The notes below the pieces were generated by a model that did not search any database, was not told the origin of the DNA, and saw only the letters and a program-made list of their open reading frames with translations. From assembly GCA_040753155.1 (NCBI GenBank), contig JBFMEU010000001.1, forward strand, positions 13,273 through 77,272: a stretch of 64,000 nucleotides of DNA, in the 5' to 3' direction. This document shows, in pieces, positions 61,207 to 61,498 of this stretch. This stretch comes from Bacillota bacterium. Its GTDB lineage: Bacteria; Bacillota; Desulfotomaculia; Desulfotomaculales; JBFMEU01. The stretch's first letter is position 1; every line of letters starts with the position of its first letter. The position numbers and the translations under genes were made by a program.

Positions 61207-61498
61207 CTAACTATTCAGGTATTCAGAATTCAGGAGTCAGAATTCAGAATGGACCGTATAGCTCATACTTCGGAAACGCCATGGATAAACGATAAACCGC
61301 AAGTACGAACAGGTGCGCCTTCTGCCATACCAGTAAATCTTCAAATGTTTTCGCTGGTTTTCTCATTCTGACTCCTGACTCCTGACTCCTGACTCCTGAC
61401 TCCTGACTCCTGACTCCTGACTCCTGACTCCTGACTCCTGACTCCTGACTCCTGACTCCTGACTCCTGACTCCTGACTCCTGACTCCTGAGTAGTTAC
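61207..61498 (-). mobile_element. four-helix-bundle MITE, longest copy: TIRs, 40-codon mini-ORF and (AGGAGTC)17 on the - strand (61370-61488)
   Basis: TIRs are TAACTATTCAGG ... CCTGAGTAGTTA. Flanking AACCAAGC on both sides is a candidate 8-bp TSD. The mini-ORF is MRKPAKTFEDLLVWQKAHLFVLAVYRLSMAFPKYELYGPF*. Confidence 0.85.

Follow-up and report, generated by a model that had tools for sequence, protein, structure and literature searches.

A 64,000-nt stretch of DNA from a Bacillota bacterium of the Desulfotomaculales (assembly GCA_040753155.1, contig JBFMEU010000001.1, positions 13,273 to 77,272 of the forward strand), termed here the window, contains seven copies or fragments of one short repeat element. 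They most probably represent MITEs (miniature inverted-repeat transposable elements), complete or fragmentary, that were mobilised in trans by an IS66-family transposase, of the ISBst12 group, and whose cargo is a decayed cassette for a four-helix-bundle (4HB) protein. An original prediction, based on the letters of the window, had listed these loci as a family of MITE-like elements that has terminal inverted repeats (TIRs) and flanking direct repeats. All seven are present, belong to one family and lie between long open reading frames (ORFs) (Table 1; all coordinates are those of the window). The TIRs are found in all complete copies, and the direct repeats around copies A, B and C proved to be 8-bp target site duplications (TSDs). 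The motifs of the family far exceed expectation: the double heptamer AGGAGTCAGGAGTC (at most one mismatch) occurs 36 times in the window vs 0.01 expected, the 23-nt ORF start ATGAGAAAACCAGCGAAAACATT five times vs 0, and the 12-nt end motif (at most one mismatch) nine times vs 0.3.

Complete copies are 123-327 bp in length, begin and end with GTAACTAYTCAGG...CCTGAATAGTWAC and carry no transposase gene; the sole ORF is a remnant of a PF05635 gene of at most 40 codons. Read in the sense of this ORF, the order is GTAACTACTCAGG, (AGTCAGG)n, AGTCAGA, the ATG of the 40-codon ORF, TTCTGA ATTCTGACTCCTGAATTCTGAATA and CCTGAATAGTTAC. The long inverted repeat takes in the heptamers and even the AGAATG. 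On recounting, the AGGAGTC units number 2, 17 and 5 in copies A, B and C, as predicted. Only A and B have the 40-codon ORF described for the family intact; that of C is split by an unrelated 135-bp repeat nested in it and also has a small internal deletion, and 14 codons are all that is left in D and E. In this shorter form, codon 8 is fused to the last codons that the ancestral gene had at its C-terminus (HILGAF and a stop in D). F and G are 3′-end fragments whose plus strand encodes the ancestral C-terminal codons EAYSRGILTPDS, followed by a stop. F had first been read as a 5′ end, a reading ruled out by these C-terminal codons.

The evidence for mobility comes primarily from the target duplications. 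Fifteen independent complete copies were scored by strict pairing of the ends, which was used in place of a fuzzy TIR pattern that put ends inside the arrays. Of the 15 copies, 14 are flanked by 8-bp TSDs that agree at 7 or more of the 8 bases, 11 of them perfectly; flank 8-mers taken at shifted positions as a control meet the 7/8 level in 0.3%. Further copies exist outside the window, as the prediction had anticipated. A metagenome scan with the ORF-start core gave 33 exact matches in 29 contigs, and a word-indexed search of 5.8 billion proteins gave 62 clusters of related proteins, all 22-69 aa. Copies with an identical deletion junction occupy different sites, each with its own TSD, which shows that the deleted form itself multiplied. 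A search with the 20-mer of the ORF start in a collection of genome contigs other than the host genome gave as sole match a chance hit in rpmI of an unrelated metagenome-assembled genome (MAG).

The ends identify the probable type of transposase. The MITE end GTAACTATTCAGG is the same as ISBst12-group ends over 12-13 nt. It starts with GTAA and fits the ISBst12 group consensus GTAACTRYTCAG, with 12-13 of 13 nt as in ISGka4 and in two metagenomic insertion sequences (ISs). IS66 family members are known to start with GTAA and to generate an 8-bp direct repeat. ISGka4, from Geobacillus kaustophilus pHTA426, has the ends GTATCTATTCAGCCC and GTAACTATTCAGCCC and the TSD GACGAGTT; ISDge4, an ISBst12-group element with a single transposase ORF, has GTGACTACTCAGCA and GTAACTGCTCAGCA as its ends, with a direct repeat of 8 bp. 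Of the two metagenomic elements, each with a single DDE_Tnp_IS66 ORF, one multi-copy element has the ends GTAACTATTCAGCCCC and GTAACTATTCAGGACACC and the TSD ATAAAAAG, and the second has the ends GTAACTGCTCAGCC. Two multi-copy metagenomic ISBst12-type transposases come from other samples. With 12-13 identical terminal bases and an 8-bp duplication, the element is thus classed as an IS66/ISBst12-type MITE.

The element resembles ISGka4, ISDge4 and ISBst12 in its terminal 12-13 nt (GTAACTAYTCAG), in the 8-bp duplication and in its occurrence in Bacillota. Unlike these ISs of ~1.6 kb, it is 0.1-0.3 kb long and has the heptamers and a 4HB remnant inside instead of a transposase gene. It also resembles MITEs such as Correia, ERIC and Nezha, which are small, multi-copy and intergenic and have TIRs, a fixed TSD and a hairpin transcript. 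It differs from these in that the deletions inside it affected a passenger cassette of another, widely distributed kind instead of a transposase gene, and in its long hypervariable subterminal arrays. In the proposed mechanism, an ISBst12-group DDE transposase, presumably encoded in this genome, would recognise the ends GTAACTAYTCAG and cut with an 8-bp stagger, and the 8-bp duplication would follow. The cargo derives from a 4HB cassette, a PF05635 gene of ~120 codons with (AGGAGTC)n 5′ of the ATG and (GACTCCT)n over the stop codon.

Table 1. Positions of the repeat family and of other features in the window
Feature	Position	Strand	Description
Copy A	55467-55653	+	Complete, 187 bp; 2 AGGAGTC units
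Copy A, 5′ TIR	55467-55479	+	
Copy A, remnant ORF	55494-55616	+	40 codons
Copy A, 3′ inverted heptamers	~55610-55640	+	
Copy A, 3′ TIR	55641-55653	+	
Copy A, target duplication	55459-55466; 55654-55661		ACCATAGG; ACCATATG
Copy B	61207-61498	-	Complete, 292 bp; 17 units; between argF and argG
Copy B, 5′ TIR	61486-61498	-	
Copy B, (AGGAGTC)17	61368-61490	-	
Copy B, remnant ORF	61244-61366	-	
Copy B, 3′ TIR	61207-61219	-	
Copy B, target duplication	61199-61206; 61499-61506		AACCAAGC, perfect
Copy C	62698-62960	-	Complete ends, 263 bp; 5 units; between argD and argF
Copy C, target duplication	62690-62697; 62961-62968		TCCGCCTT, perfect
Copy D	19291-19419	-	Short form; 6 units precede an ATG and 14 codons; degenerate TIRs
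Copy E	45936-46060	-	Same short type as D, with 95% identity across 118 bp; 14 codons; 5 degenerate units; 5′ end truncated
Copy E, 3′ TIR	45936-45948	-	
Fragment F	51871-51962	+	One-ended 3′ fragment: C-terminal codons EAYSRGILTPDS and stop, (GACTCCT)9, TIR at 51950-51962
Fragment G	7975-8010	+	C-terminal codons and first 3′ heptamers; no TIR
16-mer array near copy B	61532-61656		GGGGACATTCCTCATC, 7 units
22-mer array	61664-61731		3.1 units
Solo array (CTCAACT)17	24265-24384		ilv/leu operon spacer
Solo array, GACGCCC type	26329-26409		11.6 units; ilv/leu operon spacer
Solo 12-mer array	26077-26102		2.2 units; ilv/leu operon spacer
~135-bp repeat	36304-36438		
~135-bp repeat	58160-58294		
~135-bp repeat	3696-3753		Partial
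~135-bp repeat	62750-62884		Nested in copy C
~280-bp repeat	about 19215-19495		Surrounds copy D
~280-bp repeat	26185-26249		Partial, inverted
184-bp direct repeat	29843-30026; 59002-59185		89.7% identical
glmS ribozyme	14025-14183	-	97.7 bits, E 1.5e-21
609-aa ORF	12061-13890	-	Downstream of glmS ribozyme
Defence/addiction cluster	~46,100-54,400		E and F at its borders

A 56-kb JGI contig of a sister strain (L002, L038, L042) is 99.2-99.9% identical to window positions ~19,400-64,000. The copies in this interval are all common to both strains; in the comparison of this interval with the sister contig, no clean filled/empty pair was seen for the MITE family. Two more copies lie on the sister contig past the end of the window, one of them between argC and argJ (L002). 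The array of copy B has 17 units in the window vs 13 in the ~99% identical sister strain, so that n varies between strains as the prediction had suggested. The arrays may lengthen and shorten through replication slippage.

Other arrays of the window vary as well. None of the solo arrays of the ilv/leu operon spacers has as many units here as in the sister strain or fewer than a differing count, and no 4HB remnant adjoins them. Close to copy B, the 16-mer array has 7 units vs 8 in the sister strain; it faces a 22-mer array, and jointly these contain inverted GGGGACA...TGTCCCC motifs. The hairpin motif GGGGACACACCTCC...GGAGGAATGTCCCC is found twice in a ~230-bp insert inside the sister element at the F site (L002 19150-19430). 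The GGGGACA/TGTCCCC hairpin repeat is probably a fourth mobile repeat, in addition to the MITE family and to two others described below. A 103-codon mechanical ORF (61244-61555, minus strand) runs through the 17-unit array into the mini-ORF of copy B. Gene callers render such arrays as QESGVRS repeats (P0055, P0022), which are spurious database proteins.

The mini-ORF represents the N-terminal part of a PF05635/TIGR02436 protein, as had been proposed; profile matches and alignment to full-length homologues agree on this. The 40-aa product matches positions 1-30 of the 106 positions of PF05635 (E 1e-5, 26.2 bits, cut-off 33.8), TIGR02436 (E 1.4e-3, 18.8 bits, cut-off 24) and NF008911 (E 4e-6, below the curated cut-off). 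All three scores are below the cut-offs of these hidden Markov models, as would be expected with a third of the domain present; the product is a fragment of a family member. Alignment with full-length homologues gives E 5e-18 and indicates that ~36 of ~120 residues are kept, roughly 1.5 of the four helices. Longer remnants among the related proteins reach ...SNIAEGFRKR (P0008, P0019) and continue into ...YGLSSQFRRAAVSIAANIAEGFRKR, and in others the C-terminal end ...LEHILGAF survives (P0033). A contig from another MAG (L003) contains a near-full gene that has lost 1 nt within a run of A, which shifts the frame. After repair, its PF05635 score is 123.9 bits (positions 1-100), and PDB 2gsc is matched with E 7e-18. 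The longer remnants and the near-full gene show that the window ORFs are internal-deletion derivatives of a PF05635 gene; a search of the window for a full-length 4HB gene elsewhere found none. The greater part of the gene was probably lost through internal deletions between stretches of short homology, for example ATATAC(C)GG, a motif that appears to mark the A-type junction at both breakpoints. One deletion would have left the in-frame 40-codon remnant and another the 14-codon remnant, and the deleted forms would then have multiplied.

It is highly improbable that the mini-ORF is a working small-protein gene in which the count of AGGAG heptamers tunes or phase-varies translation, as in a contingency locus. 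AGGAG is found 5 nt 5′ of the ATG, so the last AGGAGTC unit may act as a putative Shine-Dalgarno (SD) sequence; A, B and several of the metagenome copies have an uninterrupted frame, and n is unequal in close strains. Variant alleles of the remnant ORF show 15 synonymous and 22 non-synonymous changes (two of the latter are stops), a mild synonymous excess that suggests at most weak constraint. Against this, the product retains about one and a half helices, and copies with stops, a 1-nt deletion, nested insertions or the 14-codon form are found. The predicted RNA stem described below sequesters the SD and AUG, and unrelated arrays of the window vary equally between both strains. Most likely, the peptide encoded by the remnant has no function.

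Neither the heptamer arrays nor the ORF arose as an invention of the MITE; together they form the normal architecture of 4HB cassettes in many phyla. A tblastn search of plasmids with the repaired protein gave its best matches in Nostocales (61-69% identity), and these full-length genes carry the same AGGAGTC/GACTCCT arrays, with ...AGGAGTCAGGAGTCAGAAGTCAGGAGTCAGAACAA before the ATG and ...ATTCTGACTCCTGGCTCCTGA CTTCTGGATTCTGA at the stop. The survey was extended to 30 independent PF05635 loci from plasmids of four phyla and from viral contigs. Period-7 arrays are present on both sides in 21 of the 30 loci; 20 pairs are inverted and one is direct. The latter is found in Pseudanabaena galeata pPg_01 (L046, 45871-47024), where (GCTAAAA)x15.6 precedes the gene and (GCCAAAA)x14 follows it. 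The 11.4 kb adjoining PF05635 genes contain 46 period-7 arrays vs 7 in the 22 kb farther off, and no other period exceeds 10 arrays near these genes.

Lineages differ in the sequence of the unit and mostly keep the period. The unit is CTGTCAC in Anabaena sp. 90, GGGAAAA in Geminocystis, AAGGTTY in Riemerella and GGACAGA-like in Azospirillum; viral contigs have AGGGAGT/ACTCCCT, TAGGGAG, AGGAGGC/CCTCCTG and others. Period 8 is found in Picosynechococcus (AGGAGATA) and Leptolyngbya (GAGATAGG-like). These data bear on the possibility that the heptamers are ordinary simple repeats of a repeat-rich genome that lie beside a 4HB remnant by coincidence. Unrelated window arrays, (CTCAACT)17 and the GACGCCC type, are strain-variable too and fit this; it is effectively refuted by the same unit flanking homologous Nostocales genes, and by the concentration of period-7 arrays near PF05635 genes and their inversion in 20 of 21 pairs.

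In cyanobacteria the arrays are the termini of the cassettes. The empty site in a related plasmid of Nostoc sp. C057 reads TTCAGGTTCTAG GTT ATGCAAATC, and at the matching point the filled site of N. punctiforme holds an array, the gene and an inverted array, and nothing more. A cassette lies between cmr2 and cmr3 in PCC 7003; Picosynechococcus PCC 7002 is without it. Cassettes are also found within other CRISPR-cas operons: besides cmr2|4HB|cmr3 of PCC 7003 (L037), where the cassette provides the cmr2 stop codon, the order cas6|4HB|cas4 is found in Anabaena sp. 90 (L044) and in L046. Such insertions may be the reason why PF05635 appears as CRISPR-associated in large-scale screens.

An arrangement of this kind also occurs in ribosomal RNA genes. 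The Azospirillum lipoferum AZO_p2 match (L047) lies inside a 23S rRNA gene, in helix 45 (Rfam LSU positions 874-1664, 505 bits), with inverted period-7 arrays at both borders of the intervening sequence (IVS). In Coxiella burnetii an IVS in the same helix has a terminal stem that is cut by RNase III, a decaying PF05635 ORF, and two or three tandem GACAGAT units, strain-dependent in number, directly 5′ of the ATG. The 23S IVSs of Coxiella, Leptospira (S23p) and Azospirillum are similar to the window copies in the terminal inverted stem, the variable heptamers before the ATG and the decay-prone PF05635 ORF. The units differ (AGGAGTC in the window, GACAGAT in Coxiella, GGACAGA-like in Azospirillum). 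Unlike the IVSs, the window copies are found between protein-coding genes and have IS66-type ends with 8-bp TSDs, which are unreported for IVSs. The origin of ORF-bearing IVSs has been debated since ~1990, the choices being a transposition remnant or a mobile element that its own ORF helps to move.

A related, unlikely reading of the window family is that the cassette moves by a route of its own, in which a pentameric 4HB protein binds the heptamers in DNA or RNA and promotes insertion into rRNA or between genes, the IS66 ends being acquired secondarily in the window lineage. Ralph and McClelland are said to have proposed the old idea of ORF-aided mobility for intervening sequences. The flanking of 21 of the 30 loci by period-7 arrays of constant period and lineage-specific sequence favours such a route, as do the Nostoc and Picosynechococcus sites, where arrays form exact ends with no clear TSD, and the placement of cassettes in 23S rRNA helix 45 in both Azospirillum and Coxiella. 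However, all 62 related ORFs are truncated and the deleted forms have nevertheless multiplied with precise 8-bp TSDs; therefore the 4HB protein is not needed in cis in the window lineage. No intact copy that might act in trans was seen in the partial genome sequence. For family members other than those of diversity-generating retroelements (DGRs), we know of no binding or catalytic activity.

Two other known systems invite comparison. The Avd proteins of DGRs have the same four-helix-bundle fold and belong to the same family, PF05635. The ancestor of the window gene had this fold in common with Avd, and the window gene itself is a remnant. No reverse transcriptase (RVT) is listed among the Pfam hits of the sister-contig genes over window positions ~19,400-64,000, and no template/variable repeat pair of the DGR type was found. 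Cyanobacterial heptamers of the short tandemly repeated repetitive (STRR) type are similar to the window arrays in period, intergenic location and variable copy number. Arrays of 4HB cassettes differ from these in being an inverted pair around one gene family, marking the ends of an insertable cassette. IS-derived MITEs and the IS66 family are already known kinds of element. In the searchable (non-subscription) literature, no prior account of ISBst12-derived MITEs or of a general heptamer-flanked 4HB cassette was found, and the Coxiella IVS paper alone links heptamers with the ORF.

The transcribed element is predicted to be strongly structured. Copy A as RNA has a calculated free energy of -62.5 kcal/mol (z = -5.0), with a terminal stem in which the two arrays and the ends pair. 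In this predicted fold the AGGAG and AUG are buried, and the Nostoc cassette is predicted to fold likewise. Transcribed arrays and TIRs would thus pair into a long stem, which may be subject to RNase III-type cleavage or other processing at the RNA level. Three co-oriented copies occupy consecutive arg operon spacers, argC|argJ (L002) and the window spacers argD|argF and argF|argG. The prediction had arrays in the sense of the flanking genes. As a tendency this holds, since by crude ORF calls across loci the downstream ORF is co-oriented with the copy in 21 cases and opposed in 9; it is not a rule, and F is anti-oriented. As the plus strand of F encodes C-terminal codons, its nine-unit array is the 3′-side array of a plus-strand fragment and not a sense 5′ array.

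It is somewhat unlikely that the host retains the copies for their RNA structure in the spacers of operons, in the manner of repetitive extragenic palindromic (REP) or Correia sequences; they might serve as RNase III sites, stabilisers or attenuators. This is compatible with a MITE family, with mobility accounting for origin only. The three arg copies, the 21:9 bias and the strong predicted stem argue for such a role, as does RNase III cleavage of IVSs of the same layout in Coxiella. On the other hand, orthologous copies differ between strains in array length and content, which speaks against tight functional constraint.

Several observations weigh against transposition by an ISBst12-type enzyme as the account of this family. 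A tblastn search with the ISGka4 transposase found no IS66-family transposase in ~367 kb from the organism and its relatives, so the partner is unproven, and a scan of the same ~367 kb found no TIR attached to non-heptamer sequence. In D, E, F and G at least one TIR is missing or not intact. At the F site, which alone differs in content between the strains, there are two unlike alleles and no TSD, the sister strain having a full copy there that is organised differently. The lack of a TSD indicates that the site was rearranged, and the two alleles suggest that recombination also shapes the family. The 21:9 orientation bias is not accounted for by transposition alone, and the mild synonymous excess in the remnant ORF may reflect weak coding constraint. 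Finally, GTAACT-type ends and a clear TSD were looked for in the Nostoc and Picosynechococcus cassettes and none were seen; an IS66-type mechanism therefore covers the window lineage and not the general spread of the cassettes. The window itself has no IS-sized repeat. Two candidates for an autonomous partner were rejected: a solo end in L027 is only a fragment adjoining an ordinary gene, and a DDE_Tnp_1 transposase in L072 has unrelated ends.

Other repeats and features are found in the window (Table 1). A second repeat of ~135 bp, with two strong hairpins, is present in copies that are 99-100% identical, one of them nested in copy C. The copy at 58160-58294 is missing in the 99% identical sister strain, where the empty site holds only TGG; this element has thus moved recently. 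The 135-bp copies have no TSD and all abut ATTTA, which resembles the behaviour of palindrome-associated transposable elements (PATEs) of the IS200/IS605 type. Copy D is nested in a third repeat of ~280 bp that is rich in internal pairing, and the composite of the two is found in at least nine metagenome loci. No Rfam family matched the elements or the nested 135-bp repeat, the window is without rRNA, and no tRNA was found in it. The 184-bp direct repeat is also present in the sister contig. A glmS ribozyme upstream of a same-strand ORF is consistent with a Bacillota host. By Pfam matches in the sister contig, the defence/addiction cluster includes MazE/PemK, HEPN/MNT (HepT-like and Polbeta), an AAA_11/AAA_12 helicase and two BrxC/BrxD-family genes.

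A regularity emerges from these comparisons, in that PF05635/TIGR02436 genes are typically found inside inverted period-7 arrays in Cyanobacteriota, Bacillota, Bacteroidota, Pseudomonadota and viral contigs. The window family provides the first clean transposition signature found for such a unit, with IS-group ends and a fixed TSD. It has consequences for annotation, as NCBI labels remnants of 30-60 codons 'four helix bundle protein', and several of the 62 clusters carry the name 'MAG: four helix bundle protein [Bacillota bacterium]'. The finding also bears on the role of non-DGR four-helix-bundle proteins, possibly heptamer binding, and on the origin of ORF-bearing IVSs. It can tentatively be hypothesized, as a possibility and short of an expectation, that non-DGR PF05635 genes are the cargo of widespread small insertable cassettes ended by inverted heptamers whose arrays are read by the pentameric protein, and that the window family is one lineage of them which IS66-type ends captured and which decayed afterwards. 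If so, these cassettes would insert between co-oriented genes, including those of cas operons, in phage genomes and in 23S rRNA helix 45, where the ORF-bearing IVSs would be such cassettes, and the pentameric protein would recognise period-7 arrays in DNA or RNA and aid either spread or harmless excision from transcripts.

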